The position numbers and the translations under genes were made by a program. A stretch of DNA of 51,401 nt. It comes from Verrucomicrobiota bacterium (GTDB lineage Bacteria; Verrucomicrobiota; Verrucomicrobiia; Verrucomicrobiales; DEV007). Below, in pieces: positions 2,605 to 29,317 of the stretch. The stretch's first letter is position 1. Every line of letters begins with the position of its first letter. The notes below the pieces were generated by a model. That model saw only the letters and a list, made by a program, of their open reading frames with translations. It did no database searches and was not told where the DNA came from. The stretch is taken from contig JASFYY010000058.1 in NCBI GenBank assembly GCA_045046875.1, forward strand, positions 1 through 51,401, read 5' to 3'.

Positions 2605-2631
2605 AACATCAAGGCAAACGTTTTTACGTAA

Positions 2632-4245: not shown

Positions 4246-4334
4246 TTGTTAGCAATCTAAGAGAAACTCACTTTCTGAGCAAGAGTCTATTTCACCCTGC
4301 TGTATAAAGTTCAACCATATCCCCATAAGCAAAC

Positions 4335-5855: not shown

Positions 5856-5862
5856 AATCAAG

Positions 5863-6004
5863 ATCACACTACGCTATAATTTTTTTACAACCACTGATTT
5901 CACTGAAGAGGAAGTAAATTTGAAATAAAAAAGTAATATGATTCAGTGCTTATCAGTGTTCATCAGTGGTTTAATTCCTGATTCAAAAAATGTCGTGTAG
6001 TGTG
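5863..6004. mobile_element. MITE-like 142-bp element with imperfect terminal inverted repeats, flanked by a 7-bp direct repeat
   Basis: CACACTAC (5865-5872) and GTAGTGTG (5997-6004) are inverted and extend imperfectly into T/A tracts. AATCAAG occurs at 5856-5862 and 6005-6011. Internal inverted arms AACCACTGATTTCACTGA (5889-5906) and ATTCAGTGCTTATCAGTGTTCATCAGTGGTT (5941-5971). Confidence 0.55.
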
Positions 6005-12821: not shown

Positions 12822-13649
12822 TCAATCAGCACTGCCTACAATCGGAAAACTACTGCCCTCTGCGCCCCATTCAGTCCACGAAGCGTCATACACAACGATT
12901 TCATCACGCCCACTGAGATCTGCCGCCAAAGCTATAATACAGGCCGTGACACCCGAACCGCAGGAGCAAAGTAAACGTTGTTGAGGATCGGCAAGAGCTG
13001 AAAAAATATCCTTCAGCTCATCAATCGGCTTCATTTTCCCCTCTTCAAGCAATTCCACATAAGGCAGATTTTTTGCCCCCGGCATGCAAGCCGCGTCAAA
13101 ACGATCCTTCGATCGCGCGTCCAGAATCGTCGTATCAGCATCATGCAAACGCTTGTGAACATGATCGGCACTGACAAATTTTTCGTTCTTTTGCGCTACA
13201 AAATCTCCCGGCACCGACAAATTCCTTGGCTCGTCATTCACAGTATAACCCGCCGCCTGCCAAGCCAACAAACCTCCATCGAGAACCGCAACCCGCTGAT
13301 GCCCCATGGCACGAAACATCCACCACGCCCGGCAACTCGAAAACATCGCATTGCTGTCATAGACCACCACCAGGCTGTCTTGCTTCACCCCCAGCTTGCG
13401 CACCGATTCGGCGAACAAATCCTCATCAGGTAACATGCGCGGCAGATGGGTTTCTTGATCCTTGATCTCACCATCATAGTCAAAAAAGCGCGCGCCAGGA
13501 ATATGCAAACCATGCCACTCTTCCCGCCCGCAACGCTCTTTCCCTGGCAAATGCCAAGAGGCATCCAAGACAATGATTCCCTCATCCCCAAGGTGTTGAT
13601 TCAGCCATTCAACCGATACCAGACTTCCGGGAAATTCACATTCAGCCAT
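12822..13649 (-). CDS. sseA: 3-mercaptopyruvate sulfurtransferase / two-domain rhodanese
   Basis: LVSVEWL, HIPGA.FFD, RAWWMF...GH..VAVLDGG, active-site CGSGVTAC, YD.SW.EW. Confidence 0.88.
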   Translation of the reverse strand: MAECEFPGSLVSVEWLNQHLGDEGIIVLDASWHLPGKERCGREEWHGLHIPGARFFDYDGEIKDQETHLPRMLPDEDLFAESVRKLGVKQDSLVVVYDSNAMFSSCRAWWMFRAMGHQRVAVLDGGLLAWQAAGYTVNDEPRNLSVPGDFVAQKNEKFVSADHVHKRLHDADTTILDARSKDRFDAACMPGAKNLPYVELLEEGKMKPIDELKDIFSALADPQQRLLCSCGSGVTACIIALAADLSGRDEIVVYDASWTEWGAEGSSFPIVGSAD

Positions 13650-13695: not shown

Positions 13696-14280
13696 CTAGA
13701 ATCGCACGGTTTTGTAAGAGGTAACTCCGTTCACCAAGACCGGCTGGTAATACAAGCCGTTAAATATGTAGTAAACCACTCCATTCACCGTGGTCGCGGT
13801 TGCCCCGGGAGGCAAAACGGGAACGATTGCTCCAATCGGAGGTTCAGCCACGATATACCCACTATCGACCGGTTGGTAATAAGTGCCTCCGTAATAAGCA
13901 TACGGCGCGCCACTCACATAAACCGTAGAATAACCTCTCGGAGGCGCAGTGATCGCTGCTCCAACCACCGCACCAGCTACCATACCCACCGCCACACCGG
14001 CGGCCACCCGTCCATGCCCGTATCCATGGCCATAGCCGCGACCATACCGATTAACATCTACATCCACGTGACGGGATCGATTGACGTGCGTACTGCGATT
14101 GACATGCGTACTGCGATTAACCGATGTGCTACGGCTGACACTGCGGTGCCCTCCACCGCGGCTCACACTGCGACTACGGCTGACGCTGCGCCCGTGCGGG
14201 CGGGCATCAGCTGTGATAAGCGAAAGGCCTAATACTGCCACTGTGCCCAGAGAAAACCAATTATGTGCTTTTTTCTTCAT
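13696..14280 (-). CDS. Secreted low-complexity protein, DUF6515-like
   Basis: Signal peptide, RS/HVNRST and GYGH repeats, hydrophobic GVAVGMVAGAVVGAA, duplicated PP.GY.TV.V.G..Y.Y..G.YYQP module. Co-oriented with the operon. Confidence 0.75.
   Translation of the reverse strand: MKKKAHNWFSLGTVAVLGLSLITADARPHGRSVSRSRSVSRGGGHRSVSRSTSVNRSTHVNRSTHVNRSRHVDVDVNRYGRGYGHGYGHGRVAAGVAVGMVAGAVVGAAITAPPRGYSTVYVSGAPYAYYGGTYYQPVDSGYIVAEPPIGAIVPVLPPGATATTVNGVVYYIFNGLYYQPVLVNGVTSYKTVRF
14078..14121. repeat. 18-bp coding tandem repeat (about 2.4 copies) encoding VNRSTH
   Basis: CGATTGACGTGCGTACTG / CGATTGACATGCGTACTG / CGATTAAC. Confidence 0.85.
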
Positions 14281-14314
14281 GATCTATCTATTCTTTTAAG
14301 TTATTGCCGCTTGT

Positions 14315-15121
14315 TTATTTTTTCGGCGCGCCGTCCTTTTCACCTTCTTCTTCATTAGGTAAAACTTCAATTTTAAGAACTCCGGCAGGCGGATCAAAAG
14401 TGAACACGTATGCAGGCAAACTCAATCTTGTATCCCAGTCTGAAAACAATGCGATAAATTGCGGACGACCTTGCTCTTGCTTGAAAGTGATCACCACTTT
14501 CCTTATCGTCGGCACGGGACCTTCATTCACCCACGCCTGCCAATTAACGATTTCCCCTTGAAAGGCCACGTGATGACAAAGCTTGCCCAGCACTGGCTCC
14601 TTGCCGAGGTATTGCCCCGACTTAGCCTTGGCCGCCGCCCCCGCAAAAGGACGACTGATCAACAAATCTTCAAGCGGCATAGTGATGCCAAATTTTTCAT
14701 CCAATTTATCCAAGGTTTCTTCGATCGTCGCAGGAGCCGCAACACTGCCGTAATAACCCTTCTGATGATCCACCACACTCACACTCTTGCCATCATAATA
14801 AAAACTGCGTTTGGGTCTATCCGTTTTGACATCGATGCGTAAGCCATCCGGACGCCGGACTTTGACATCAGCCAACTTGCTGAACTGTAACATGGTGCCA
14901 TTTTCATCCTCAAGGTCCTGCCAGATTTCCGCCGATACAGAAAACTGCTTGGCAGCAGACAAATGATCAGCTGCACGTTTGAGGATTTTGACCGCCATCG
15001 GATCGATCGCTGGAGCTTCTTCTGCTTTGGCTTTGTCCTCTGCTAAAGCTAACAAAGGAAGCGATGCCACCCCCGCCAAGGTCAGTAACAGCAAGGATTT
15101 GAATTGATTGTGTTTTTTCAT
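14315..15121 (-). CDS. DUF2092 periplasmic protein (LolA-like fold predicted)
   Basis: Signal peptide; DP.A..ILK....L.A...FSV, V.RPD.LR, YDGK, P.TI...LD, P.EDLL, CHHVAF, WQ.W, F.F.PP.G. Confidence 0.82.
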   Translation of the reverse strand: MKKHNQFKSLLLLTLAGVASLPLLALAEDKAKAEEAPAIDPMAVKILKRAADHLSAAKQFSVSAEIWQDLEDENGTMLQFSKLADVKVRRPDGLRIDVKTDRPKRSFYYDGKSVSVVDHQKGYYGSVAAPATIEETLDKLDEKFGITMPLEDLLISRPFAGAAAKAKSGQYLGKEPVLGKLCHHVAFQGEIVNWQAWVNEGPVPTIRKVVITFKQEQGRPQFIALFSDWDTRLSLPAYVFTFDPPAGVLKIEVLPNEEEGEKDGAPKK

Positions 15122-15167
15122 AAAATTCAGCTAGGTAAAATTATCATCACTTTGCAGATTTGTCACG

Positions 15168-16955
15168 TTAAGGTTGATACCAAATCGGCGAAGTCCACGC
15201 CCGTTCCTGTATCGTAGCTTGCACATCCTTGAGCAATGGCAGCCCATTTCGAATCGCATCATAAGTGCTCCAACGAGGTGTTGGGATCTCAATAACCCGA
15301 GCGTAATAGAAAGCATGCTGTTCAGGATCAAAAGCTTCATCTTTCCATGTTCCCATAAGCTCCACGCCGCCGATGGTATTTTGATACTTGGCCGTTTTCA
15401 AATCCACCGTATTGCCAACCGACGGAAGCTTGCCCTCACTTCCAATCTCCCTCTTGCCCGCCCATACCACGTCGATGATTTTTTCATGCAGCTCTCCACC
15501 TTTATCCACCCAGCCTTTGATAATTTGAACCCGATCCAGATTCGCTCCGTCAACATCCTTCGTCGCGTAAACGGTAAAAGTAGGAGCCGCGCCAATCGAT
15601 CCTAGGTCTCCCCCCATAGGCACCCCGAATTCATACCCCTGTTTAACCATCGTCTTCACATCAGGAGGATCAGCAGGCAAATCCACCCCACCAAACAAAC
15701 GTACTTTGATCCGTGGACCACTGCTTGCAAAGGTCTCGCGTCTCTTCATCGCATCCCAAATCGCCGCCCGGGTATTTTCCGTCGCCCAGACTCCGGCAAT
15801 CGATCCGATGCTGAGATCCTTGCCATCGATCCAACCGGTCACATTACCCTTGCGTCGTGCCTCGACGCTTCCATCCTCCGGACCGTGTGCTCCGATAAAA
15901 CTGTCTTCAGCCACCGCAGACATAAGCCCGTTATGATTATCCGTGCCGCCTATAAAACCATACTTAAATGGATTCACTCCTAGTTTCTGCTCAAAACCCA
16001 GCCCTATTTTTAAACCCTCACGCACAAAATTCTTTTTCTTAAAAATGCGCCCACTCGAGTTTTGAATCGAATCCGCATTTTCAAAATTGGCAAACTCATC
16101 AGCTGCCCAGAACTTACGATGCACTTCGGAATTCCCCTTCACCTGCATCATCTCGATCAGTGGCTCGAAATGCTGGCGCCGTTGAGCATACTCCAGATCC
16201 ATCGGCGCACCAGCCGCATTGGTCGAAGGAAACATCATACCCTTGCTGGCATTGGAATTGTGGGGGATAGCCAGCGCTTTGATTCCTTTGCTCTCTTGTT
16301 TTTCCATCCATTCCCACAAACCATCCTCGCGATTCACATCAATGTAACTCACTGGAGCAGCGGGAACATTAGCATCTCGATAGATCACATTACGATGCAA
16401 ATTGGCACCCTTGGGAGCACCACTCCATTCAAATCCGATCAAGGCAGTGAACTTGCCGGGTTCATTATGTTTTTCCGCTGCATCGATAATGATTTGCCAG
16501 GCACTCTTCACCGTTTCCTGCCCTGCAAAAAACGGCGGATGCTGGGGATTCGCCCCCCGATTGGCGGAGATCACATATTCCATGAACCATTTCTGTCGTT
16601 CTTCAAGATCCGTCATCGAACGAAGGTCTTTCAATAGCTGCTGATCATGCCCCGGCGCCCCCTCATTGAGTGTCGAATACATCTCTCCGATGTATTCGGC
16701 ATGATCTGTCACCGCGGCGAAGTCCAGCGGACGTTTATGGGACACACTTTTCCCATTCACCATTACAGTCTCCCCTTTTGCGTAACGATAAGAGTCATTT
16801 GGAGTCAACCGTGTGCCTCCAAGATAAGCATCCAGTGAATAGGCTGTGTGCATATGGGTTTCACCAAAATAAGCATGGCGCTCGTCTTCTGCTTGAGCCG
16901 AATATAAACCGAAAACTCCACAAAAAACGGCAATAATGATATGATTCAATTTCAT
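15168..16955 (-). CDS. DUF3604 domain protein (PHP-like metallohydrolase), secreted
   Basis: YFGETHMHT, TDHAE, GFEWS, LHRNV, PHNSN.S.G, QVKGNSEVH, GGTDNH, TIQERAWTSPIWY. Confidence 0.9.
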   Translation of the reverse strand: MKLNHIIIAVFCGVFGLYSAQAEDERHAYFGETHMHTAYSLDAYLGGTRLTPNDSYRYAKGETVMVNGKSVSHKRPLDFAAVTDHAEYIGEMYSTLNEGAPGHDQQLLKDLRSMTDLEERQKWFMEYVISANRGANPQHPPFFAGQETVKSAWQIIIDAAEKHNEPGKFTALIGFEWSGAPKGANLHRNVIYRDANVPAAPVSYIDVNREDGLWEWMEKQESKGIKALAIPHNSNASKGMMFPSTNAAGAPMDLEYAQRRQHFEPLIEMMQVKGNSEVHRKFWAADEFANFENADSIQNSSGRIFKKKNFVREGLKIGLGFEQKLGVNPFKYGFIGGTDNHNGLMSAVAEDSFIGAHGPEDGSVEARRKGNVTGWIDGKDLSIGSIAGVWATENTRAAIWDAMKRRETFASSGPRIKVRLFGGVDLPADPPDVKTMVKQGYEFGVPMGGDLGSIGAAPTFTVYATKDVDGANLDRVQIIKGWVDKGGELHEKIIDVVWAGKREIGSEGKLPSVGNTVDLKTAKYQNTIGGVELMGTWKDEAFDPEQHAFYYARVIEIPTPRWSTYDAIRNGLPLLKDVQATIQERAWTSPIWYQP

Positions 16956-16981
16956 GATTTTTCGGTTTTTAGCTTAAGGTA

Positions 16982-17782
16982 TTAAAATGTTGGGAAAAGG
17001 GCAGTAAAAGTCAAAGTAACCGACCACTGAGACAAACTAGGTTCATCAATCAAATTGTATTGAGGATTGAGCGAAATCCGAGCAGGCATCTTGCCAATTT
17101 TAAGAACTTTTCCGATTTGAAACCCAATCGGCGCATTCACCCAACGACTGCTTTTCCAATCATAGGCAAACTGAAGATCACCTGCCGAAAGCGCCCACCC
17201 TTTACCCAGTTGATAAGCAATGATGGGTTGCAGTTGCGAGACCGCTGTATTGCTCCAGAACACATTCTGAGTGAACAAACCAACGTTCAGCTTCTTGCTG
17301 ACCTTGTAAACAGCACCAAGCGCCGGTCCAAGCACGTATTTGTCGGGCGCCCCACCGGTGGTATCAAAACTCATCACCGGCCCAATTCCCCAACGCCCCC
17401 AGTCCTGGTTAAACACCATCATATCAAAAACTGAAATCGCTCCCCAGCCCTCGTCGCCACGCCCATCCACTTGATAAGGAATCGTCAGACGTAAAATATT
17501 TGCTTGATCGAATATTTTAAGCGGAATCACCGGACGGAATTGAAAGACCGTGCGTGAATCCTCTTGCCCTATTCCTCCGCCATAAAAACCGCCCGTGTAG
17601 ATGCCTTGGAAATTCAATGCCATCAACGACGCTGTAGGATCGGTAGCTTTGGTAGAAAGATCATTGATACTACTTTTGACTACGGGTTTGTTTCCTGTTT
17701 CGAGATTTACCGCATTTTCCGCAAAAAGAGCGGTTGGTGTGAAAATCACAGTCATATATAGGAATACGCCTAGTATTTTCAT
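16982..17782 (-). CDS. Predicted outer-membrane beta-barrel ('neuromedin U'-like transporter family)
   Basis: Signal peptide, L..KATDPTASL, FRPVIP, WGIGP, LGPA, QPIIAY, WVNAPIG, amphipathic C-terminal strand ending in F. Confidence 0.7.
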   Translation of the reverse strand: MKILGVFLYMTVIFTPTALFAENAVNLETGNKPVVKSSINDLSTKATDPTASLMALNFQGIYTGGFYGGGIGQEDSRTVFQFRPVIPLKIFDQANILRLTIPYQVDGRGDEGWGAISVFDMMVFNQDWGRWGIGPVMSFDTTGGAPDKYVLGPALGAVYKVSKKLNVGLFTQNVFWSNTAVSQLQPIIAYQLGKGWALSAGDLQFAYDWKSSRWVNAPIGFQIGKVLKIGKMPARISLNPQYNLIDEPSLSQWSVTLTFTALFPTF

Positions 17783-17818
17783 TTTTTCTTAATGATATTT
17801 CACTTTGTTGTTAAAAAT

Positions 17819-19399
17819 TCACATCCCCAACCCAATGTCCTTCGGGGGGTATTTCTTGAATGTGGCCCCATGCGCCTTGAGTTTAGCCCCCAGTGTGGCC
17901 AGCCAGGCATTACGACGATGCCCAACGGGCATCTGCTCCTTCGGATCAATATAAAGGTTAAATAACCAAGGCGCTATCCCCACATTTTGAATCGTCGACA
18001 TATCAATATACATGTGGGTGGACTGCGGCAGCACTACCTTCACATGAGCCTTGTATTCACGCATGCGACAGGCCGTCAGCTGGGTTCCCCACCAGAAATA
18101 AACGGCTTCCCGTTTAGAGAGTCCTTGGTCGGCTAGTAAAAATGAGGTCTGATCAATGAAGTCATAATACTTGTCATCGGGCAGCGTATCGACGGAAACC
18201 CCGGCAAGGTTCAAAGCCGTGCCAAAGAGATCCATCAGGTCGAACAGTTCATCACTTTCACGCCCCTCTTTGATCATACCTTTCCAATAGGCAATACCAG
18301 GAATGCGAACCCCTCCTTCAAAAGTAGTGCCTTTTGCTCCTCTAAACGGCGTGTAACCACCGTCCGGCCAGGCATCCATCTGCGGTCCATTGTCGGAGGT
18401 GAAAAACACAAAAGTGTTTTCCAGCACACCCGCTTGACCGAGAGCTTTCATAATTTCACCCACATGCAAATCCACTTCAGCGACCGCCTCTTTGTAGGCA
18501 TATTTCGCGGCACTAAGAGATCCGAGATCCGGGTTAGAAAAATTATCCGCATGCACTTTCATAAAACAGTGTTCAATGAAAAAAGGCTTATCCCCCTTCG
18601 CAGCCTCCTTGATTTTCTTGATGGTAAAATCAGCAAGCACCTTATCGGCACGCCCCATATCTACAGTGGATTGGATCTGACTGATTTTTTCCGTTTTGCC
18701 GCCTTTGAATCCGTGGGTCAAGTGGTTGTCTGGAGCGATGCCTTCGAAAGCCGCAAGTTTTCCCGGGTCATTGACGAGGTCGGGGTAACGACGCGGATCA
18801 ACGCTCTGGGAAATTTCTTTTTGAGCTGGATAGTAGCCATAATATTCATCGAATCCAACATCGTGTGGACGCATCCCCTTATTCTCACCAATGTGCCATT
18901 TACCCGTAAGCAGGGTATAATAACCCGTGTCACTGAGTAAAGCGGCGAGGGATCTTTCATCGGCCCAGGGATTCTTGGTAAGTTTGTCTCCCGCTAGGAT
19001 CGGGCGGATGAGCCCAGTGCGAAATGGAATGCGTCCGGTAAGAATAGCCGAACGTGTCGGGGTGCAGGTATGTTGCGAATAACATGAAGTGAGTTTGAGT
19101 CCTTCCCGCGCAAGCCTGTCGATGTTCGGAGTCGCAGCGCCAATAGCAGCGCCCCCTCCATAACAACCAGGATCCCCATAGCCCATGTCATCAACGATAA
19201 TCCAAAGAATATTCGGTTTTTTCCCAGTTTTCTTTTCCAAAGCAGCAAGCTTGGCAGCAACTGCTTTGTCCTGCGCTGGACGAGGAATGGCAGGCTCTCT
19301 ATTTTCAGCCGTGCGCACAGAGCGGTCAAGACCAGCTTGAGCTATTGTCGTGATAAGACTAAGAGCAAAAAGAACTGTGCAAGCTTGTTTGGTTTTCAT
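17819..19399 (-). CDS. Arylsulfatase (Cys-type), secreted
   Basis: ATG 19399 (MKTKQAC) preferred because the 19441 start overlaps the upstream gene. KPNILWIIVDDMGYGD, CTPTRSAILTGR, GKWH.G, SDNGP, FEGGVR.P. Confidence 0.92.
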   Translation of the reverse strand: MKTKQACTVLFALSLITTIAQAGLDRSVRTAENREPAIPRPAQDKAVAAKLAALEKKTGKKPNILWIIVDDMGYGDPGCYGGGAAIGAATPNIDRLAREGLKLTSCYSQHTCTPTRSAILTGRIPFRTGLIRPILAGDKLTKNPWADERSLAALLSDTGYYTLLTGKWHIGENKGMRPHDVGFDEYYGYYPAQKEISQSVDPRRYPDLVNDPGKLAAFEGIAPDNHLTHGFKGGKTEKISQIQSTVDMGRADKVLADFTIKKIKEAAKGDKPFFIEHCFMKVHADNFSNPDLGSLSAAKYAYKEAVAEVDLHVGEIMKALGQAGVLENTFVFFTSDNGPQMDAWPDGGYTPFRGAKGTTFEGGVRIPGIAYWKGMIKEGRESDELFDLMDLFGTALNLAGVSVDTLPDDKYYDFIDQTSFLLADQGLSKREAVYFWWGTQLTACRMREYKAHVKVVLPQSTHMYIDMSTIQNVGIAPWLFNLYIDPKEQMPVGHRRNAWLATLGAKLKAHGATFKKYPPKDIGLGM

Positions 19400-19413
19400 G
19401 ACTTTGTTTTTAA

Positions 19414-20358
19414 CTAAAATTTGAACAGCAATTTGAACCACACATAATTCCCCTGTAGTCGGTCGCGAGTTTCAAATTCGTGTAACCATTTCAACTCACC
19501 TATCACGTCGACATTGCCGATTTTTCCTGCGTAAGATAAAACCGGACCGAAACCTGCCGTGCGCCCTTTGAAGTCTCCTAGTGCCGCCCCCGACCCGCTA
19601 TCTCCCGTCACTTGCTCATACCAATATCCATTGACCCCCACTCCCGCCAAACCGCCCAACAATGGCAAATGCTGCGCCAGCGTGCCATCAACATGAATCT
19701 GGGTGCCGGTTTTGTAATGGGTATCATCATTCTCAGTGTTGAAATCAGCACCGGTAAAAACAGAAGCTTCAATCCCATTCTTCTGGCCAAAATACATAAA
19801 ACCCACCGTCGGTTCGATGGTCCAATAATTTTTACCCGTATTCGCCAGACGCCCCACCTTGTATCTCCCTGTCGGCGCATAAATACCTAGTCGGTAATTG
19901 ATGCTGAAGTCATCACTGAGTTTCTGATTCAACATAAAAGGCATCAACACGATATCCCCTACTCCCTCGATGCTATCCGATCGCCGAACCGGCCCCACAT
20001 TCGCTGACACATCCATCGACACCCAGGGAATCGTTGTGCTCATGGCAAAACTCAAGTTATCTCCAATCTCAAAAGAACCCGGCCGCCAGAACAAAGTAAG
20101 TCCATTGGCCCAGGAACTTGCCTTCACTCCGAAAGCCGCCTGCCCCGCGATCGGAATCGCCCGCCGAGCATCAATGGTTCCGTCATACCAAAGCAGATTA
20201 TAGCGTGCGATAAAAGTTTCCTCTGTAGCAACGGCATCCACAAAAGAACTCATCGAACCGGGCAGGTAATGACCTGCGCCCCCCTCTTCCGATTGCAGTG
20301 GAATAAGGTTTAATATATTAATGACGACAATTAAAAGCGGGAGAATTATTTTTTTCAA
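19414..20358 (-). CDS. SphA / phenol MetA-pathway family outer-membrane beta-barrel
   Basis: TTG start, signal peptide, EEGGAGHYLPG, G.GD, YAPTG.Y..G.LAN.G.N.WT.EP, Q.TGDSGSGA.LG, terminal WFKLLFKF. Confidence 0.82.
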   Translation of the reverse strand: MKKIILPLLIVVINILNLIPLQSEEGGAGHYLPGSMSSFVDAVATEETFIARYNLLWYDGTIDARRAIPIAGQAAFGVKASSWANGLTLFWRPGSFEIGDNLSFAMSTTIPWVSMDVSANVGPVRRSDSIEGVGDIVLMPFMLNQKLSDDFSINYRLGIYAPTGRYKVGRLANTGKNYWTIEPTVGFMYFGQKNGIEASVFTGADFNTENDDTHYKTGTQIHVDGTLAQHLPLLGGLAGVGVNGYWYEQVTGDSGSGAALGDFKGRTAGFGPVLSYAGKIGNVDVIGELKWLHEFETRDRLQGNYVWFKLLFKF

Positions 20359-20467
20359 AACTTACTTTTATAGTTAACTGTTAAACTAATTGCCATTCAA
20401 GCGATCAACTCCCCAATTGTAAAGCTATAAAATATATTTGCAAAAGTTATTTGATTTTATACAAACG

Positions 20468-20482
20468 ATAAGTTTTATTTAT
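20468..20482. promoter_or_regulatory. Putative LysR recognition box (T-N11-A)
   Basis: ATAA-GTTTTAT-TTAT dyad in the AT-rich divergent region, just before the LysR ATG (20486). A second inverted pair TATAAAAT (20426-20433) / ATTTTATA (20454-20461) lies nearby. Confidence 0.55.
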
Positions 20483-20485
20483 ACG

Positions 20486-21391
20486 ATGCTTGACCTCAAA
20501 AAACTGAATCACTTTTCCACAGTGGCAAAACACGGCAGTCTTAGCAAGGCTGCCAGCGCGCTGGGACTAACCCAACCTGCCTTGACTCTGAGCATCCGAA
20601 AATTAGAGCAAGAGCTGGACTGCACCTTGTTTGATCGATCCCATGGATTTGAATTGACAGGTTTTGGACACCAGTTACTGAGCACAACAGACAAGGCTCT
20701 CTCTCAAGCCAGCGATATTGAGCAAGAAATCCAACTGTTACGTTTAGGAACGAAAGGCAAACTAAAGATCGCTTGTGGTCCCAGTGTGGCTGAATATTTG
20801 ATCGGTCCAGCCATAGCCAGTTTGCTGCGGCAAGGTATTGATCTGGAAGTCCAAATTGACATCTCCTCCATTAACACCAGCACTCAGCTATTACTGCAAC
20901 GCGAAATTGATTTTGCTGTAGTTGAAACTTCCGCAATCAAAGACTTCCTAGAGTTTGAAATCACTCCACTTCCACCTCAGGAGATCATTTTTTTTGCACG
21001 CAAGGATCATCCTCTCACTAAGAAAAAAAAAATCAGCCCTAAAGATTTTTTCTCCTACCCACTCGCCGCTTCTGATCTACCTCCCTGGGCCATCGACTGG
21101 ATACGCGAAAACCGACCAGATAGCGCAAAAAAACTAGGGCTGCAAATACGCTGCGCTCACCATAACCTGCTCATTCAAACGGTCGCTGCAAGCGATGCGA
21201 TCAGTGCCGCGCCGAAAGCGGTCATTGCAGAGTCAATGCAAAGTGGCAAAATTGCCCCTATCCTCTTTAAACCCGCCAGTATGTTCAACCATGCAGGAAT
21301 TGTATTTTTAAGGGATCGCCAACTGAGCAAGTCCACTCAGAGATTAATCGACAGTATCAAAGAAACCGCCACGATGTCCTCCTCACCTTAA
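20486..21391 (+). CDS. LysR-family transcriptional regulator
   Basis: ATG 20486 (MLDLKKL..F..VAKHGSLSKAA..L..TQPALT.SIRKLE..L...LFDR) helix-turn-helix, then a substrate-binding domain. Divergent from the SphA-arylsulfatase operon. Confidence 0.93.
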   Translation: MLDLKKLNHFSTVAKHGSLSKAASALGLTQPALTLSIRKLEQELDCTLFDRSHGFELTGFGHQLLSTTDKALSQASDIEQEIQLLRLGTKGKLKIACGPSVAEYLIGPAIASLLRQGIDLEVQIDISSINTSTQLLLQREIDFAVVETSAIKDFLEFEITPLPPQEIIFFARKDHPLTKKKKISPKDFFSYPLAASDLPPWAIDWIRENRPDSAKKLGLQIRCAHHNLLIQTVAASDAISAAPKAVIAESMQSGKIAPILFKPASMFNHAGIVFLRDRQLSKSTQRLIDSIKETATMSSSP

Positions 21392-21560
21392 GCACCCACC
21401 CATCAACACACTCACTGCCCAACCCGGCTAAAACAGATCACGCTACACGACAGTTTTACAAATAAGTGCGCTGAACAAGTTTTTACACCTTTATCTTGGC
21501 TCGAACCAACCAAACTAACCTTAAAGATCAGTAAAAAAGTTAATTGTCACTAATGCAATA

Positions 21561-23473
21561 TCATTTCGATGGCGCGTACCAGATCGGCGAAGTATACGCA
21601 CGCTCCTGGGTGATCATAGGAACATTTTCATCCATCTTAATCCCGAAACGTTTGGCTTCATAAGCTGTCCACCTCGGCGTCGGAATTTCGATCACCCGTG
21701 CATAATAAAATGCTGCTTGCCTGGCATCAAAATCAGGATCATACCAAACAGTGATCAACTCCGGGGCACCGATGGTATTCGTCCACGTTGCATTTTTAAC
21801 ATCAACCGTATTCCCAACGGCTGGCAGTTTACCATCCTTCCCGGGTTTGCGACCATCACTCCAGGCGACATCATAGACCTTCTCATAGGTCTCCCCTTTT
21901 GCATCCATCCAACCTTTAATGATCTGGACACGATCAAGATTGCCACTGTAGGGATCTTTCAGAGCAGCAACCAGAAAACCGGGAGATTTCCCCTTTGGAG
22001 CATCCGTCATATCTCCTCCCATCGGCACGCCTTTTTCATAACCCGCGGATGCCGGCAATCGAGACAAGGCATCTTCTTTCACGAAATCCCAACCGCCAAA
22101 AAAGCGCACGGTCATGCGGGGCCCTGTAGTCGAATAAGTCTCCTTTCGCTTCATCGCATCAAAGATGGCTTCGCGAGTATTTTCCGTTGCCCAAACAGCA
22201 GCATAACCTCCCGCTGCTTGTTGCCAGCCTTTGATGGAAAACTTCGGATCAGGAGCCTCAATCACCATGTGTTCCCAACGATGAGGCTCCGGTTCAACCC
22301 CTGAATGTTTACCGAAAAAATTCTCTTCTTCAACCGCCGCCATTGCGGTATGGGAATCCGTGCTACCAATCAAGCCGAACTTGTAGGGGTTCACACCCAG
22401 CTTGCGTTCCAACTTCAATCCTGTTTTGAGCGCTTCGCGGGTGTATTCCCATTGCAACATTTCGGGTTTTTTCGCCACGGTCCCATTGAGGTTGGATTTA
22501 TCCCAGGTCTCGTAATTGGCGAACTCATCATTCGGCGATAACATCGGATGGGCTTCACTGTCCCCTTTGATCTGGGTGGCTTCAATAAGCGGTTCATCTT
22601 AATCCTCAATGCAGCCAATTCTTTGCTCAGAGGTTTGCCGTCAAAATTCTCAACGGTGAACATGCGACCATTACTCAAATTTCCATTATGAGGAATCGCC
22701 AACACTTCTTCTCCCGTTTTCTTTTCAAAGCCCTGCAAATACCGCCACAGGTCTTCCGGGTTTTTGCTATCGAATTGAGAAAAAGGAATCGTCTGGTTGG
22801 CAGCGCTTGAATCACCACGAAAAATCACGTTGCGATGGATATTATCCCCACCGATCGCTGTCCACTCAAAACCAATAAGGGCAGTGAAACGACCGGGGTC
22901 GTTATATTCGTCCGCTAGGGAGGTGTAAGCATGCCAAGCGTTTTTGATAGCTTTATCATTTTTGATCAGAGGTTTGTCACCAGACAAAGAAGCGACGATT
23001 TCCATCGCAGTGGCAAATATTCTGTCCGTATCCCCACTTTTCAGTTCTCCATACCACTTCTTGCCATATTTAGTGCTGAGGATTTCAGGATCGCCACTCA
23101 ACAACTGCGGCATCAATCCATACATTTCTGCGTGATCTGTAATCACCAGAAAATCAAGCGGACGTGAAAGTTTAGCCCTTAATCCATGAGTAGTGGTGAT
23201 CTCCTCTCCTCTGGCAAAGCGAAAAGCATCCTCCTGCCCCACTCGACACATCGTGCCTGCATCAACCGAAACGGCGGTATGCAGATGTGTGTCACCAAAC
23301 AGAATCTTGGTTGGAAAATTACGCCCCGCATAAGGAGAATATTCCTTTTTTGCAAGAACGGCTACCCCCTCCTTGCTGGGTTTTTCATCGGCTTGGGCGA
23401 GGCCAGCCCACAGCCCCGAAACCATAACAAGACAAGATCCAAAGATTTGATTGAATTTGCTTTTCATTTGCAT
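21561..23473 (-). pseudogene. DUF3604 protein split by a 1-bp deletion near 22595 (pseudogene or sequencing error)
   Basis: ORFs 22415..23473 and 21561..22544 are the N- and C-halves. Adding one G (ATG GAA CCG) restores [18 protein letters not shown], matching EPLYESTQIKGDGEAH in the paralogue, and gives a 637-aa protein. Confidence 0.88.
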
Positions 23474-23484
23474 ATTCCAACTAA

Positions 23485-24444
23485 CTAAAACTGATAGACT
23501 ATCTTAAACCAAATATAATCGCCTTTGACACGCCGCTCGGTCTCAAGTTCAGTCAACCACCGCACCTCTGCCACCAAGCTATTGTCTCCCACTGGCAGAA
23601 TATAACTCAGCACTGGACCTAAGCCAACCGTGCTAGCTTTGTTATCACCAAGCCTGGCCCCACTGCCACTATCTCCAGTGATCTGCTGATAATAAAAAGC
23701 CTCCGCTCCGATACCGAGAAAACCTTTACCCAGCGGCAATAGCTGCTGCACAGTGGTGTCTGCATGAAAAATGGTTCCGTTGCGGTAATTCGTATCCTTA
23801 TTCTTAGTGCTAAAAGCAAACCCGGTATGAAGGGCGGCATTGAATCCCGTCTTAGCATTATTGTAAGATCCACCCACAGTTGGATCAAAAGTCCAATGAT
23901 TCAGTCCGGGATTAGCGAGACGCCCTACTTGATAATCACCAGTCGGAGCGTAAACGGGCAGCATAGCGTTGATTTGCCAGTCGTTAATTTCCCATGCCAT
24001 CATAGCTGGAATAATCAGTAAATCCCCAATCCCGTCAGCTTTGTCAGTGCGTATTCGACTACGACCCGTCAAGGTGACATTCGCACTGACATCCATCCAG
24101 ACGTAGGGCAAAAAAGCTCCCAGCGAATAATGAGCACCGAGGAATTTTTGATCAAAGGTATAAAGCGAACCTACGGTAACCGCGTCACTGGTCGCGCTGA
24201 GCCCCCCAGCGAGCACTCCCGCCACCGGCAAGGTCTTTGCCGCTGACGCATCGCCGTCATAGTGCAAATACATCGTTTCCAATACCCAACCTCCTTTGGT
24301 CGGCGGAAGATCAATAAGGCTCGCAACTCCTCCCGGAATATAATGCCCCGCACCGCCTTCTTCAGCTTGGCTGACAGGAGCAAAGACGGATGCTGCCACG
24401 ACAGCCAAAACTGCCAGATAATTAATTAATCGATGTAGTTTCAT
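23485..24444 (-). CDS. SphA / phenol MetA-pathway family outer-membrane beta-barrel (second copy)
   Basis: EEGGAGHYIPG, DGIGD, YAPTGDYQVGRLANPGLN.WT.DP, QQITGDSGSGA.LG, terminal WFKIVYQF; paralogue of 19414..20358. Confidence 0.82.
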   Translation of the reverse strand: MKLHRLINYLAVLAVVAASVFAPVSQAEEGGAGHYIPGGVASLIDLPPTKGGWVLETMYLHYDGDASAAKTLPVAGVLAGGLSATSDAVTVGSLYTFDQKFLGAHYSLGAFLPYVWMDVSANVTLTGRSRIRTDKADGIGDLLIIPAMMAWEINDWQINAMLPVYAPTGDYQVGRLANPGLNHWTFDPTVGGSYNNAKTGFNAALHTGFAFSTKNKDTNYRNGTIFHADTTVQQLLPLGKGFLGIGAEAFYYQQITGDSGSGARLGDNKASTVGLGPVLSYILPVGDNSLVAEVRWLTELETERRVKGDYIWFKIVYQF

Positions 24445-24487
24445 GATTATTTTGAAGCCTTAATGATTACCGATGTGATAAACAAAC

Positions 24488-26389
24488 TTATTTCGAAGGA
24501 CTATACCAAATGGGTGCCGTGTAAGCGCGCTCTTGGGTCGTCATTTTTACTTTTTTCGGCATCTTGATGCCAAAACGTTTCGCCTCATAAGCCGTCCAAC
24601 GAGGCGTAGGAATCTCAATCACACGAACATAATAAAAGGCACGCTGCTTGGCGTCAAAATGGGGGTCTTTCCACACCGCAATCAGCTCGGGATCACCGAT
24701 GGTATTGCGCCAGGTCGCCTTTTTCACATTGACCGTATTGCCCACTGCTTTTTTGCAGCGACCATCCTCACCGATCTTGCGATCATCTGATACCGCCACA
24801 TCGTAAACCCGCTCCTCCGCTTTGCCGTCTTTACCTACCCATCCTTTGATGATCTGAATCCGATCCAGATTGCCACTCATCGCATCTTTCATCGCAGCGA
24901 CTAAAAACGTCGGTGACTTGCCTTCGGGAGCGGCTGACAGATCGCCACCCATCGGCACCCCCTTGGAATATCCAGCCTCAGCTGGCATCCGGGTCTCGGT
25001 ATCTTCTTCATTAAAATCCCATCCTCCAAAAAAGCGCACGACCATGCGCGAACCAGTGGTAGCGTAAGTTTCCTTACGCTTCATCGCATCCCACAGGGAA
25101 GCTCGAGTATTCTCCTTGGCCCATACCGCAGCAAAACCAGAAGCCGCCATTTGATAGCCCATGATTTTCCCGTTCTCACCACCAATCACCACATGCTCGG
25201 CACGATGTTTGTCCGGCTCGACTCCTGAGTGTTTACCAAAAAAGTTATCCTCTTCGACTGCTGGCAAAGAAGTGTGGGAATCGGTGCTTCCCACTTGACC
25301 AAATTTATAGGGATTGACCCCGAGTTTCTCTTCAAATTCCAACCCGCGTTTGAGACCAGAGCGAGCATACTCCCCCACCAGCATCGCATCCGTTTTTGCC
25401 TCGCTCATATCGAGATTACCCAGGTCCCAGGTTTCGTAATCGGCAAACTCGTCATCCGGCGAAAGCAAACCATGCGCCTCTCCATCCCCTTTGATCTGTG
25501 TGCTTTCATACAGCGGCTCCCAACGCTGACGCCGCTCAGCGTAATCCTTGGTGATTGGTCCACCGGCTTGAGTCTCCACATCAAACATCATGCCATTGGA
25601 CAAGTTACCATTATGGGCAATTGCCAAAACCTGGCCTCCTGTTTTTTCCTCATAAGCCGCCATCGCCTGCCACAGCTTTTCAGGATCGCTGCTGTCTGCC
25701 AAAGTGTAGGGCAGCGTCATGCTAGCTTTGTCCCCGTTGTCTCGGTAGATCACATTGCGATGCAAATTGTTCCCTTTAACCAATGACGTCCATTCATAAC
25801 CAATCAAGGCTGTAAACTTACCCGGTTCATTGTATTTCTCAGAGGCATCGATCACGCTCTGCCAAACCGGCTTCATCATTACCGGATCATTGGTTGGCCA
25901 GGGAAATTTCCCTTGTGAAAAAAGCGTGATAATTTCCAGAGAAGCGTTCACCGCATCTTTCCCGCCGTTTTTGATTGCCCGATTCCAGCGTCTCCCCTCC
26001 TCTTTATTCATCACCTTCGGATCTCCCTCAGCAAACAACGAGAAAAAACCCATACCATCCGAGTGATCGGCCACCACCACAAAATCAAGCGGGCGGGCCA
26101 GCTTCGCTTGATAACCACCCGAAGCCGTAACTTGCTCCCCACGACAAAAACGATAGGCCTCGTCGAGTCCCAGACGATTACCAAAAGTCCCCGCATCCAT
26201 CGACAGGTCGGTGTGCAAATGGGTATCGCCAAAATACACGTTAGTCGGATAAGCCCGATTAACGTAAGGCGAAAACTCCTTTTTAGGAAGTTTCATATCC
26301 TTTTTCTCCATCTGCGCATCGGTTTGCGAATAAAGGCAAGAAAGTGATGAGTTCAGGAGACAAAGGACGATAACAACAGACTTTTTCAT
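24488..26389 (-). CDS. DUF3604 domain protein (PHP-like metallohydrolase), secreted
   Basis: YFGDTHLHT, ADHSD, GYEWT, LHRNV, AHNGNLSNG, QIKGDGEAH, GSTDSH, TTQERAYTAPIWY. Confidence 0.9.
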   Translation of the reverse strand: MKKSVVIVLCLLNSSLSCLYSQTDAQMEKKDMKLPKKEFSPYVNRAYPTNVYFGDTHLHTDLSMDAGTFGNRLGLDEAYRFCRGEQVTASGGYQAKLARPLDFVVVADHSDGMGFFSLFAEGDPKVMNKEEGRRWNRAIKNGGKDAVNASLEIITLFSQGKFPWPTNDPVMMKPVWQSVIDASEKYNEPGKFTALIGYEWTSLVKGNNLHRNVIYRDNGDKASMTLPYTLADSSDPEKLWQAMAAYEEKTGGQVLAIAHNGNLSNGMMFDVETQAGGPITKDYAERRQRWEPLYESTQIKGDGEAHGLLSPDDEFADYETWDLGNLDMSEAKTDAMLVGEYARSGLKRGLEFEEKLGVNPYKFGQVGSTDSHTSLPAVEEDNFFGKHSGVEPDKHRAEHVVIGGENGKIMGYQMAASGFAAVWAKENTRASLWDAMKRKETYATTGSRMVVRFFGGWDFNEEDTETRMPAEAGYSKGVPMGGDLSAAPEGKSPTFLVAAMKDAMSGNLDRIQIIKGWVGKDGKAEERVYDVAVSDDRKIGEDGRCKKAVGNTVNVKKATWRNTIGDPELIAVWKDPHFDAKQRAFYYVRVIEIPTPRWTAYEAKRFGIKMPKKVKMTTQERAYTAPIWYSPSK

Positions 26390-26519: not shown

Positions 26520-29258
26520 TTACTCTACCAGCTCGTGAATCGTATTCTGAATCACTCGCTCGACATCTTGCCCGTCAGCTCCCTTTAATTTGCAGATCAC
26601 CTCCATCCCCCAGGTTTTCGGCAAATCAGGTATATGAATAGTCAGCGTTTTGCGATCTTTTGCCAAATCCACACGACTCACTTTGATCGCACGTTCATTA
26701 TAATGATCCGAACCATATTTTGCCGACCGTTTCAGATCCCAGACCTTAACCGCGAAGTTTTTTGCTTTCGCTGTAGACGAATCCAGCTCATCACTGAACT
26801 CAATCACCATCGCGCCCTTCTTTGCTTTTAACTCCAGCGGCAAATAAGCCGGTTTGCCAGTATAACGAATACGATAAAACCCTCCGCCCTGATCCAGTTG
26901 CTGGGTGCCCCAGGCAGCCATACCACAGACATAAAGCTGCCCATCGTCCGGATTAAAACGTCCACGCATAATTCCTGTCGGCAGATCGGGAATCGGCAAG
27001 CGGCACAAACCACCCTGCGGCTGGCCATTTTCCAAAAACTCATGCGGCACGATCTCGAAACGCCCGTGTCCATATGACAAGTTCAAAAGCTTGCCATTCA
27101 ATGCACCCCACGACTCGCTCTCGATCCACAGCAGTTCCGATGGCGAACGGTCAAAAGGTTTGTCCACCCAGCAAAGTGGCTGTTCCATCGCCGAATCAGA
27201 AGAATCCTTCGATGCGCCGTAACTATACATATTGCCGTAAAACCCGCCCCGCTTGACCCAGTTGATCCGGTTCATCGGATTCCAATGCCCCTCCTGATCA
27301 GTGACAATAAAAGTGCCGTCCGGATTGAGACAAACGCCATTGGCCGCACGAAAGCCATTGGCGATAATTTCACTTTTGCTCCCGTCCGCACTTACTTTGA
27401 TCAAAGTCCCATGTTGCGGCACCAGTGGCGCTTTGGCATGACGGGCACTTTTGGCATAATACAAATTGCCCTCGTCATCCGACTGCAAGCCCATCGCAAA
27501 TTCGTGAAAGTGTTCGGTCACCTGATGATCACTGTTAAAACTCTCGTAAAAATCCGTCTCTCCATCTCCGTTGAGATCATTCAAGCGAACAATCTGGTCC
27601 CGGCAGGTGACATAGATTTGTTCATTGATGATTTTCAGGCCCAGCGGTTGAAACAGCCCTGAAGCAATCCGCTTCCAAGTCACGATATTGTTTTTGCCGT
27701 TCAAACCCGACACCTTCCAGACATCACCGTCCCAACAACACAACACTGCTTCGTTACCGCCAGGCAGGAAATCCAAGCCACTGGTGCGGATTCGACTTTT
27801 CCAGGGATTGACTACCGGCCGCGTCAGTCGATCAAAAGCAAAAGCCCCCTCTTCACTGCTATGCACCACCAAAGCGGATAATTCCTCCGGCCAATGAGAA
27901 GGGCCTCCTTGGGTCAAAGGCTTAAGATCCTCGGCAGCCGCTGCTTTTCCTGCGATTCTGTTGAGCTCCTTGCTGTCTTCTTTTGCCAAAAACAATTCTA
28001 AATTCAAGGGCGTATCCGCCGCCGCAATACGCACAGTCCGATAGGTCCCATCCTCGATAATTTTCGCTTTTGCCTGGGCAGACAAAACCACTCCCCTTCC
28101 TTTCTCCGCTGCCCGCAGAATCAAATCCGTCGATGATTTGCCAATGTTCAATACCCGCACAAACACCGGCATCTCCGCTTCATTTTTTTCCAAGCGATAA
28201 CTCTCCAATATCGAAGCATCACCGACCGTGTAGGAAATCACCACCCGTGAACCATGATAATACAGTCCTCGATAATGTCCCCACGATCTCGGCAAGGGAC
28301 CGAAACGTCGCCCATCGAGACCTTCAATCCGCAAATCATCAAATTCGCCCGTCGCCGGATTTGCCCAACCCGGTCCGTCAGGCAAATCAAATTGCAATTC
28401 CCCCACCGTCTTCGGATGCTTCCGGTGTTTGCCGTTATAAGAAATCCCATTCCAATCGATAAAACCTTCTCCCGTCCATGCCCCTGCTAATCGCAGCGTA
28501 TCATGTTCAAACCCCACCCAGGCTCGACCCGCGCCCACACCACCGGGGCCCGCATCCAAACGAATCGCAATGGTCTTAAACGCGGTGTTGGCATTCGGTG
28601 ACAACAGATCAGGCTCCGGTTGACCGCTGCGGGACATGATCCGTTGCTCTTTTGTCATCACGGGAGCGGGTAAAGTATCCGGCGCCATCATCTGGTAAGT
28701 GTAGATCTGAAAATTGCCATAGTCCTGATCCTTCCACGGCTCCCGAATCACCGGCTTGGGCCCTTTGGAACTTCCTTTTGGCAAACCCGCCAGATATTCA
28801 TCCGTCAACTTCGTCCACTGTGATGGATTGGAATCCTTGAGATACACACTGCGGATATAATGGATCACATCGTATTTTTGCTCAGGAACCAGTTGCACCT
28901 GCGGAATCATCAAACGCCAACCCCTGGTCAAAGTCTGGTACATGGTATAAGGATCCTTGCCGTGCTGAAACTTCCCTTCCCCAAATCGCAAAGCCTGGGC
29001 AATCGAGCCTGGCAGATTGAGATCACCGTGGCAGTTCTGACATATCGATCCATATATTCGCTTGCCCCGCTCCAGCGATTTTTCATCCCAGGCTCGAATC
29101 AATCCCGCATGATCAATCTCCTTTTCATAAGCTGGCAGAGCCGATAGTGGCAACAAGGGTGCACCCGGAGGCAGTGAAGCGACATCACCCTGTGCCGAAA
29201 TGTAAACGGTTCCAATAAAGAGGGCGGCGAAAATACCGGCAAAAGGAAAAAAACGCAT
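26520..29258 (-). CDS. c-type cytochrome + DUF6797 + beta-propeller (glucose/sorbosone dehydrogenase-like) protein
   Basis: ATG 29258 (MRFFPF, signal peptide) preferred over 29297. CQNCH heme-binding motif; ASGLFQPLG, DLNGDGETD, HEFAMGL, GFRAANG, DQEGHW motifs of PVC heme/propeller proteins. Confidence 0.8.
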   Translation of the reverse strand: MRFFPFAGIFAALFIGTVYISAQGDVASLPPGAPLLPLSALPAYEKEIDHAGLIRAWDEKSLERGKRIYGSICQNCHGDLNLPGSIAQALRFGEGKFQHGKDPYTMYQTLTRGWRLMIPQVQLVPEQKYDVIHYIRSVYLKDSNPSQWTKLTDEYLAGLPKGSSKGPKPVIREPWKDQDYGNFQIYTYQMMAPDTLPAPVMTKEQRIMSRSGQPEPDLLSPNANTAFKTIAIRLDAGPGGVGAGRAWVGFEHDTLRLAGAWTGEGFIDWNGISYNGKHRKHPKTVGELQFDLPDGPGWANPATGEFDDLRIEGLDGRRFGPLPRSWGHYRGLYYHGSRVVISYTVGDASILESYRLEKNEAEMPVFVRVLNIGKSSTDLILRAAEKGRGVVLSAQAKAKIIEDGTYRTVRIAAADTPLNLELFLAKEDSKELNRIAGKAAAAEDLKPLTQGGPSHWPEELSALVVHSSEEGAFAFDRLTRPVVNPWKSRIRTSGLDFLPGGNEAVLCCWDGDVWKVSGLNGKNNIVTWKRIASGLFQPLGLKIINEQIYVTCRDQIVRLNDLNGDGETDFYESFNSDHQVTEHFHEFAMGLQSDDEGNLYYAKSARHAKAPLVPQHGTLIKVSADGSKSEIIANGFRAANGVCLNPDGTFIVTDQEGHWNPMNRINWVKRGGFYGNMYSYGASKDSSDSAMEQPLCWVDKPFDRSPSELLWIESESWGALNGKLLNLSYGHGRFEIVPHEFLENGQPQGGLCRLPIPDLPTGIMRGRFNPDDGQLYVCGMAAWGTQQLDQGGGFYRIRYTGKPAYLPLELKAKKGAMVIEFSDELDSSTAKAKNFAVKVWDLKRSAKYGSDHYNERAIKVSRVDLAKDRKTLTIHIPDLPKTWGMEVICKLKGADGQDVERVIQNTIHELVE

Positions 29259-29317
29259 GAGGCAACAGTATCGAAAAACGCAGCAGGCGCAAGCCACTGC
29301 CAGGTCACAGCGTCACA

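Follow-up and report, generated by a model that had tools for sequence, protein, structure and literature searches.

An outer-membrane channel coupled to a periplasmic hydrolase under a LysR regulator is a known kind of system. In the carbaryl upper operon of Pseudomonas sp. C5pp, the SphA-like barrel McbT is encoded beside the periplasmic PHP-like hydrolase McbA in a cluster that also holds a LysR gene, and the pair acts on a carbamate ester (PMC11302072). Among PHP-fold enzymes, 3E38 (BVU_3505), Sb-PDE and No-PDE combine a PHP barrel, a nine-ligand trinuclear metal set and a two-domain layout (PMC11656708). Among sulfatases, PsFucS1 (7AJ0) belongs to S1_13, a subfamily of otherwise unknown specificity according to the PsFucS1 paper (PMC8484680), and genetic evidence from Bacteroides thetaiotaomicron points to BT4655 as a putative formylglycine-independent glucosamine N-sulfatase outside the known families (PMC10154612, PMC9067506, PMC11980591). 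HupE/UreJ-2 fusions have been proposed as metal-capture permeases of the anglerase type (PMC12537917), and a LolA-like fold was proposed earlier for DUF2092 (PMC4520260). The subject of this analysis is a gene block at positions 13,696-26,389 of a 51,401-nucleotide (nt) stretch of contig JASFYY010000058.1, assembly GCA_045046875.1 (contig positions 1-51,401, the window; the genome is labelled G000 in comparisons), in which three genes of the family DUF3604 (PF12228; copies A, B and C) lie among SphA/COG4313-type outer-membrane barrels, a sulfatase, a LysR regulator, a DUF2092 protein and a DUF6515 protein.

Compared with McbT-McbA, the block is without aromatic catabolic genes and has a sulfatase, DUF2092 and DUF6515 in their stead, and its DUF3604 proteins score far under the CehA/McbA cut-off. 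Compared with the setting of PsFucS1, the best solved match of the block sulfatase, it is without glycoside hydrolase, lyase or SusCD-type genes. None of 14 control genomes, B. thetaiotaomicron among them, gave a PF12228 match, so any kinship between DUF3604 and BT4655 would be distant. The commonest context of DUF3604, a module with a peptidyl-prolyl isomerase (PPIase) and HupE/UreJ-2, is not in this block. No description of a DUF3604/DUF2092/DUF6515 combination with a channel and hydrolase, and none joining COG4313 with a sulfatase, was found in the open-access literature. The block is probably a modular periplasmic scavenging unit for channel-fed hydrolysis of amphiphiles, in which DUF3604 would use metal-activated water.

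The PHP/amidohydrolase-type metal centre that the original prediction had proposed for DUF3604 is supported by a structural model and by ligand conservation. In sequence and profile searches of DUF3604 against the PDB, no chain matched at E values up to 1. A model of DUF3604-A built from 133 sequences (pLDDT, the local distance difference test as predicted, 94.8) places a PHP barrel at residues ~11-409 of the trimmed chain and an Ig/FN3-like domain at 407-594. Its best-scoring fold matches are PHP-domain proteins: 3e38 (Z 16.5, root-mean-square deviation (rmsd) 3.5, 229 aligned), 2anu (Z 16.2, rmsd 3.3, 209 aligned) and PsfC (7rty; Z 13.9, rmsd 3.8, 214 aligned), followed by EndoQ (Z 13.1), RNase AM (Z 9.8) and histidinol phosphatases. 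PsfC, an oxidative diiron enzyme, raises the alternative that the DUF3604 site supports iron-dependent oxidation and not hydrolysis. This is highly improbable, given that the full nine-ligand hydrolase set is kept, that redox partners do not recur among annotated neighbours and that DUF3604 occurs in Desulfobacterota (8/201). The ligands H57, H59, D65, H109, E199, H210, H259, D370 and H372 are each at least 94% conserved over 70 diverse rows and correspond in kind and order to the No-PDE/3E38 set H,H,D,H,E,H,H,D,H (PMC11656708). R211, N260, N262, S264 and K300 are conserved as well. All three copies had been said to keep HxH, DH, E, H and DxH residues; all nine are present in A and C, but in B only across a frameshift. 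DUF3604 is predicted to be an exported three-metal PHP enzyme with an Ig-like domain. A preprint (10.64898/2026.10.18.759936) likewise predicts a metal site and says that neither metal binding nor activity has so far been reported.

The same fold matches bring in a second alternative, that DUF3604 is an exported phosphodiesterase or phosphatase of the Sb-PDE/No-PDE kind, scavenging phosphorus from lipid-like or organophosphate diesters and having uptake genes in common with sulfatases only since both handle anionic amphiphiles. For the trinuclear-zinc diesterases Sb-PDE and No-PDE, no homologue other than the top match, 3e38, has been solved (PMC11656708), the matches to RNase AM, EndoQ and histidinol phosphatases point the same way, and no open-access literature joining a PHP domain to sulfatase activity was found. 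Identity of DUF3604-A to 3e38 is only 10-13%, however, no phosphate-uptake family appears among the annotated recurrent neighbour clusters (not every cluster is annotated), and the sulfatase associations described below also speak against this alternative, which is considered somewhat unlikely. At ~600 amino acids (aa), DUF3604 differs from 3E38, Sb-PDE and No-PDE by large insertions.

A third alternative follows from McbA, in that DUF3604 would act on aromatic or lipid compounds by hydrolysing their carboxyl-ester, carbamate or amide bonds, like McbA behind McbT. The gene mcbT (31% identical to SphA) adjoins and is co-transcribed with periplasmic mcbA (PMC11302072), McbA depends on His within a domain that is predicted to be PHP-like (PMC8292978), 13/28 DUF3604 proteins weakly match the CehA/McbA model NF038032, and an alpha/beta-hydrolase-like gene lies near 6/20 DUF2092 loci. 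The best of the NF038032 scores is 27.1 bits against a cut-off of 80, with no match for A and 14 bits for C; a profile comparison of DUF3604 with this genome's true NF038032 member aligns the first motif only (probability 6%); and ring-cleavage genes are not recurrent among annotated neighbours, leaving this alternative decidedly unlikely. Three loci of this genome, G000:C64 (L249), G000:C28 (L247) and G000:C16 (L245), encode shorter PHP proteins with DUF3604 profile E values of 1e-13 to 1e-14 and weak NF038032 matches, plus one true member (202 bits), and are a possible bridge between the two families.

The association of DUF3604 with sulfatases was counted in 401 evenly drawn Pseudomonadota genomes, 29 of which have full-length DUF3604 (at most three candidates scored in each). 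With the centre genome left out, the distance test covered 40 DUF3604 loci and 114 PF00884 hits in 28 genomes; PF00884 also takes in non-sulfatase relatives. A sulfatase was present within 5 kb of DUF3604 at 5/40 loci against 0.49 expected, and within 10 kb at 6/40 against 0.89 expected, which agrees with the enrichment foreseen by the original prediction. At the genome level, PF00884 was present in 24/28 DUF3604-positive genomes (114 hits) and in 39/80 negatives (76 hits; 80 of 372 negatives sampled), as raw counts uncorrected for genome size or habitat. Both the enrichment and this co-occurrence argue against the phosphoesterase alternative. A phylogenetic tree of 23 DUF3604-neighbouring sulfatases of at least 440 aa and 112 sulfatases from this genome places 17/23 of the former in two clades that hold only 5/112 of the latter. 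The first clade is PsFucS1/S1_13-like and the second is closest to 7all and 1hdh, the latter presumably P. aeruginosa AtsA. AtsA has been related to an S1_4 enzyme (PMC8484680). The DUF3604-sulfatase link is real and clade-selective, but it is a minority context.

The sulfatase of the block, recognised beforehand as a formylglycine enzyme by a CxPxR motif and confirmed as such by motif and domain score (Table 1), has PsFucS1 (7aj0, S1_13) as its best solved match, near full length at E 1e-164, with the next at 1e-52; none of the genome's other sulfatases is a close paralogue (the best reaches 34%). The genome has 113 sulfatase-like open reading frames (ORFs) by hidden Markov model and, by a separate count, 67 strict motifs, and the chance of at least one strict motif in a random 12.7-kb stretch is 13%; sulfatase adjacency at this locus alone therefore proves little. 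Two further S1 sulfatases lie in the window at 9698-11341 (+) and 49283-50722 (+), the former of a different clade from the block's sulfatase and flanking the corresponding locus in the congener G005.

Several observations weigh against reading the block as a scavenging unit for amphiphiles. The null of uniform placement is liberal, as accessory genes cluster and kin genomes are not independent; 35/40 sampled DUF3604 loci lack a sulfatase within 5 kb, and 4/28 DUF3604 genomes have no PF00884 match at E 1e-30. The four close Pseudomonadota homologues of the block sulfatase do not adjoin DUF3604, and gene contexts are scattered over the DUF3604 tree, on which a subfamily-specific sulfatase context was sought and not seen. 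Of 40 Pseudomonadota loci counted for neighbours (two from the centre genome, two near-duplicates left out), 26 have PPIase and 25 HupE no farther than 5 kb from DUF3604, partners that are uninformative on sulfate, and only 2 have a COG4313-like barrel that close. The block differs in each congener, and copy B is broken.

PPIase is also found near DUF3604 in other sets of loci: Planctomycetota-type (n=13; PPIase 12, sulfatase 1, barrel 2), Desulfobacterota-type (n=20; 9, 3 and 1), Verrucomicrobiales relatives (n=20; 9, 9 and 8) and metagenome contigs, many of them short (n=79; 32, 4 and 12). Directly downstream of DUF3604 (n=187), PPIase was found 51 times, DUF2092 5, SphA 4 and sulfatase 3, whereas an SphA-type or 16982-type barrel is directly upstream in 8/172 copies with room. 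The pattern of a barrel followed by a hydrolase, noted earlier in this block, recurs across phyla, but a barrel-DUF3604 pair is not a rule of the family. Within clade C, a barrel is near 4/6 members and PPIase or HupE near 0/6, too few to use. PPIase and HupE are absent from this block; the pair occurs elsewhere in the congeners G001 and G005, and in this genome a matching HupE opens contig C103, with the upstream gene cut off by the contig end. A 360-aa protein without Pfam or NCBIfam match (L042:11712-12791 and 8 other loci) often lies between DUF3604 and PPIase and is an unnamed fourth member of the DUF3604-PPIase-HupE module.

The arrangement of the block is modular. The locus of G001 reads DUF3604-SphA-sulfatase-DUF3604-DUF2092-DUF6515-sseA, that of G005 DUF3604-SphA-DUF2092 and that of G002 DUF3604-DUF2092, and the first DUF3604 of all three congeners is a different paralogue from A. 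In G003, a 91% orthologue of A sits alone elsewhere in the genome, and B and DUF2092 are immediate neighbours on one public contig. DUF2092 is present in 19/21 related genomes with full DUF3604 against 6/40 without. Other assemblies have a sulfatase-only run with the layout that also faces the closest LysR homologue, given below (G045), a barrel-sulfatase-SphA-DUF1254-sulfatase run (G437) and, on the Desulfofustis contig L194, DUF3604-sulfatase-SphA-barrel, so the same parts occur in another phylum. Near 20 DUF2092 loci not beside DUF3604, a barrel lies within 6 kb at 8, a sulfatase at 5, an alpha/beta-hydrolase-like gene at 6 and DUF1254 at 4. The enzymes swapped at DUF2092/barrel loci indicate that a slot exists, as had been argued from DUF3604 and the arylsulfatase occupying the same place. 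Three or more kinds of enzyme fill it, however, and one of these is not a sulfatase, so what follows from the slot is a hydrolase of some kind and no sulfatase in particular. Two clusters of this genome without DUF3604 have related layouts, barrel-DUF1254-sulfatase(CTAGR)-DUF1254-barrel at G000:C8:68400-73850 (L231) and alpha/beta-hydrolase-barrel-unnamed gene at G000:C72:26600-33700 (L232), and an unnamed family of ~290-400 aa without Pfam match (L155:6741-7604 and 9 other loci) recurs beside DUF2092, the third-barrel family and DUF3604.

Such variability could also mean that the neighbourhood is an accretion site for exported-protein genes, at which DUF3604 is independent and has PPIase and HupE as its only true partners. 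Congeners have between one and three DUF3604 at this site, from different clades, which SphA, sulfatase and LysR may or may not accompany; the orthologue of A stands alone elsewhere, and most DUF3604 loci are without sulfatases and barrels. Yet a small set of families, with the two sulfatase clades named above, recurs in Verrucomicrobiota, Desulfobacterota, Pseudomonadota and metagenome loci, and accretion is judged unlikely. The locus contributes a measured sulfatase link that is selective by clade, and it is an example of DUF3604 entering a sulfatase-linked envelope cluster by exchange.

The remaining proteins of the block suggest what such a unit would handle. Barrels 1 and 2 are 44% identical to each other, and barrel 1 has no sequence match to a solved COG4313/SphA member. 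The third barrel (16982-17782), also put forward earlier as an outer-membrane barrel, has no Pfam or NCBIfam match, and none to PF13557 at E 0.1; in the ESM Atlas, it has features of 0.96-0.97, a TM score of 0.83 to an outer-membrane protein model and as neighbour a 'putative transporter' cluster, 13% of which carries PF13557. It is a predicted outer-membrane barrel, probably of COG4313-like type. The DUF2092 model (pLDDT 88.7) has a LolA-superfamily fold, an unclosed barrel with a helical lid, as in 4mxt (Z 17.1, rmsd 2.6, 175 aligned), E. coli LolA and LprG/LppX; the likeness is one of predicted fold and does not imply a role in lipoprotein sorting. Together, the barrels and the LolA-fold DUF2092 suggest a hydrophobic or amphiphilic cargo. 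Homologues of the LysR regulator were found with this query in 0/5 congeners and 2/60 relatives. Opposite the closest lies a DUF2092-DUF6515-SphA-barrel-sulfatase-sulfatase run, without DUF3604 over the 18 kb examined, and the second faces a sulfatase gene. Both positions support the earlier view of a LysR-controlled system; the block as a conserved unit is not supported. DUF6515 follows DUF2092 in several genera, and an sseA-like rhodanese follows DUF6515 in 3/4 congener loci.

In the scavenging unit favoured here, the predicted outer-membrane barrels would admit amphiphilic molecules, and the LolA-fold DUF2092 likely holds or ferries their greasy part. The exported hydrolases likely remove the anionic head group, the S1 sulfatase via formylglycine and the DUF3604 proteins through the predicted three-metal PHP site, where, by comparison with other PHP enzymes, metal-activated water would attack an S-O/S-N or P-O bond. 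LysR would control the barrel-sulfatase run, and the metal loading of DUF3604 may depend on the PPIase-HupE pair encoded elsewhere. A sulfate ester or sulfamate is the single best guess for the DUF3604 substrate, a tentative one with a narrow lead over a phosphoester, because of gene context and the genetic precedent of BT4655. A broader proposal is doubtful: that DUF3604 is a widespread family of exported PHP-fold enzymes that cleave sulfate esters or sulfamates without formylglycine, can replace or be replaced by S1_4- and S1_13-like sulfatases within one common set of barrel and LolA-like proteins for the uptake of sulfated amphiphiles, and are matured by a dedicated PPIase-HupE pair; the substrates may be sulfolipid, steroid, aryl or alkyl sulfates. 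Sulfatase activity of DUF3604 is a reasonable hypothesis.

The three DUF3604 copies fall in three clades, with identities of 58% between A and B and 46% of C to either; recent local duplication was rejected on these values. Among named relatives, the one nearest to A is labelled Verrucomicrobiales. C was searched for in a further 400 genomes from the phylum, with three candidates scored in each, and none was found at E 1e-120. Copy B has a one-base frameshift near 22597 that splits it into the ORFs 23473-22415 and 22544-21561. Only reading it through with X completes its ligand motifs, and DxH lies in the second piece. Relatives' contigs, one of them ~89% identical, carry one extra base at the break, and 0/116 sulfatase-family ORFs of this assembly are split. 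The break is thus a recent loss or an isolated assembly error. A generally indel-prone assembly was rejected on the 0/116 count, and a programmed frameshift on the continuous frame of relatives and the lack of a visible slippery run at the site. Split or decayed DUF3604 copies also occur at L052, L125, L185, L215 and L225 and at G023:C2:141576-143213, and from these the loss of single paralogues may be common.

The family has 10,535 representatives at E 0.001 and 1,681 at 1e-30, and it was found in 29/401 Pseudomonadota, 8/201 Desulfobacterota and 12/201 genomes of another phylum. Cultured Sinorhizobium and Rhizobium carry close homologues (~60%) on plasmids. DUF3604 also occurs in fusions that have additional N- or C-terminal regions (P0161, P0164, P0167, P0209, P0215), among them one SnoaL/KSI-like and one leucine-rich repeat protein of 2082 aa. 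No open-access literature was found under PF12228 or IPR022028; Chlamydia CT_425 is given as a DUF3604 entry in a table row (PMC11925237).

All ten genes of the original prediction were found in the order described (Table 1). They had been taken as one block of nine co-oriented genes and a LysR. The LysR gene is divergent from the barrel 2-sulfatase run and convergent with the A-barrel 1-B run, so the block is two units and not one, with intergenic gaps of 11-46 nt inside both minus-strand runs. Signal peptides were called by eye on hydrophobic N-termini, and the N-terminus of the rhodanese is not signal-like. A promoter scan, by consensus only, found TTGACA-17-TATTTT 5' of A; the site that it gave 5' of barrel 2 is weak.

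Table 1. Genes of the block and the adjoining rhodanese gene (positions in the window)
Feature	Coordinates	Strand	Details
DUF3604-A	24488..26389	-	633 aa, intact; Pfam PF12228 E 2e-245, 816 bits
Barrel 1, SphA/COG4313-type outer-membrane barrel	23485..24444	-	319 aa; PF13557 E 4e-51, 175 bits
DUF3604-B	21561..23473	-	frameshifted; two pieces score 259 and 488 bits (PF12228)
LysR regulator	20438..21391	+	likely start ATG 20486; divergent from barrel 2
Barrel 2, SphA/COG4313-type	19414..20358	-	314 aa; PF13557 E 1.5e-50, 173 bits
S1 formylglycine sulfatase	17819..19441	-	CTPTR motif; PF00884 168 bits; likely start ATG 19399, stop 17819
Third predicted outer-membrane barrel	16982..17782	-	unnamed family, probably COG4313-like
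DUF3604-C	15168..16955	-	595 aa, intact; PF12228 723 bits; separate clade
DUF2092	14315..15121	-	predicted LolA-fold periplasmic carrier
DUF6515 protein	13696..14280	-	N-terminal half rich in Arg/Ser/Gly
SseA-like two-domain rhodanese	12822..13649	-	46 nt downstream of DUF6515; NF008557 209 bits vs cut-off 250

The GC content of the block genes is 46-55% against 51% for the genome, which gives no clear signal, and horizontal transfer as judged by composition was set aside. No cassette-bounding repeat stood out among those listed (20 of at least 60 direct families and 25 of 46 inverted pairs), and the longest direct-repeat families of the region are matches between paralogues. Among public sequencing runs, no RNA set and no reads of this strain were found (best word shares 5-6%). 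Upstream, at 26520-29297 (-), a protein of 925 aa adjoins the block here and in G002 and G005 and marks the insertion site; it has a cytochrome c motif at the N-terminus, DUF6797 and a part that is propeller-like. Three ORFs of 510-537 aa and low GC (~44-45%) lie at 1054-5867 (-), two without a Pfam match and the third ending in an FGE-sulfatase domain.

If the proposal of a PHP-fold sulfatase is true, DUF3604 would be an additional sulfatase family, one independent of formylglycine maturation, and genome-based counts of sulfate-ester turnover would change. Even as a phosphoesterase or esterase, the assignment would name a common exported enzyme and give the COG4313 barrels and DUF2092 a cargo.

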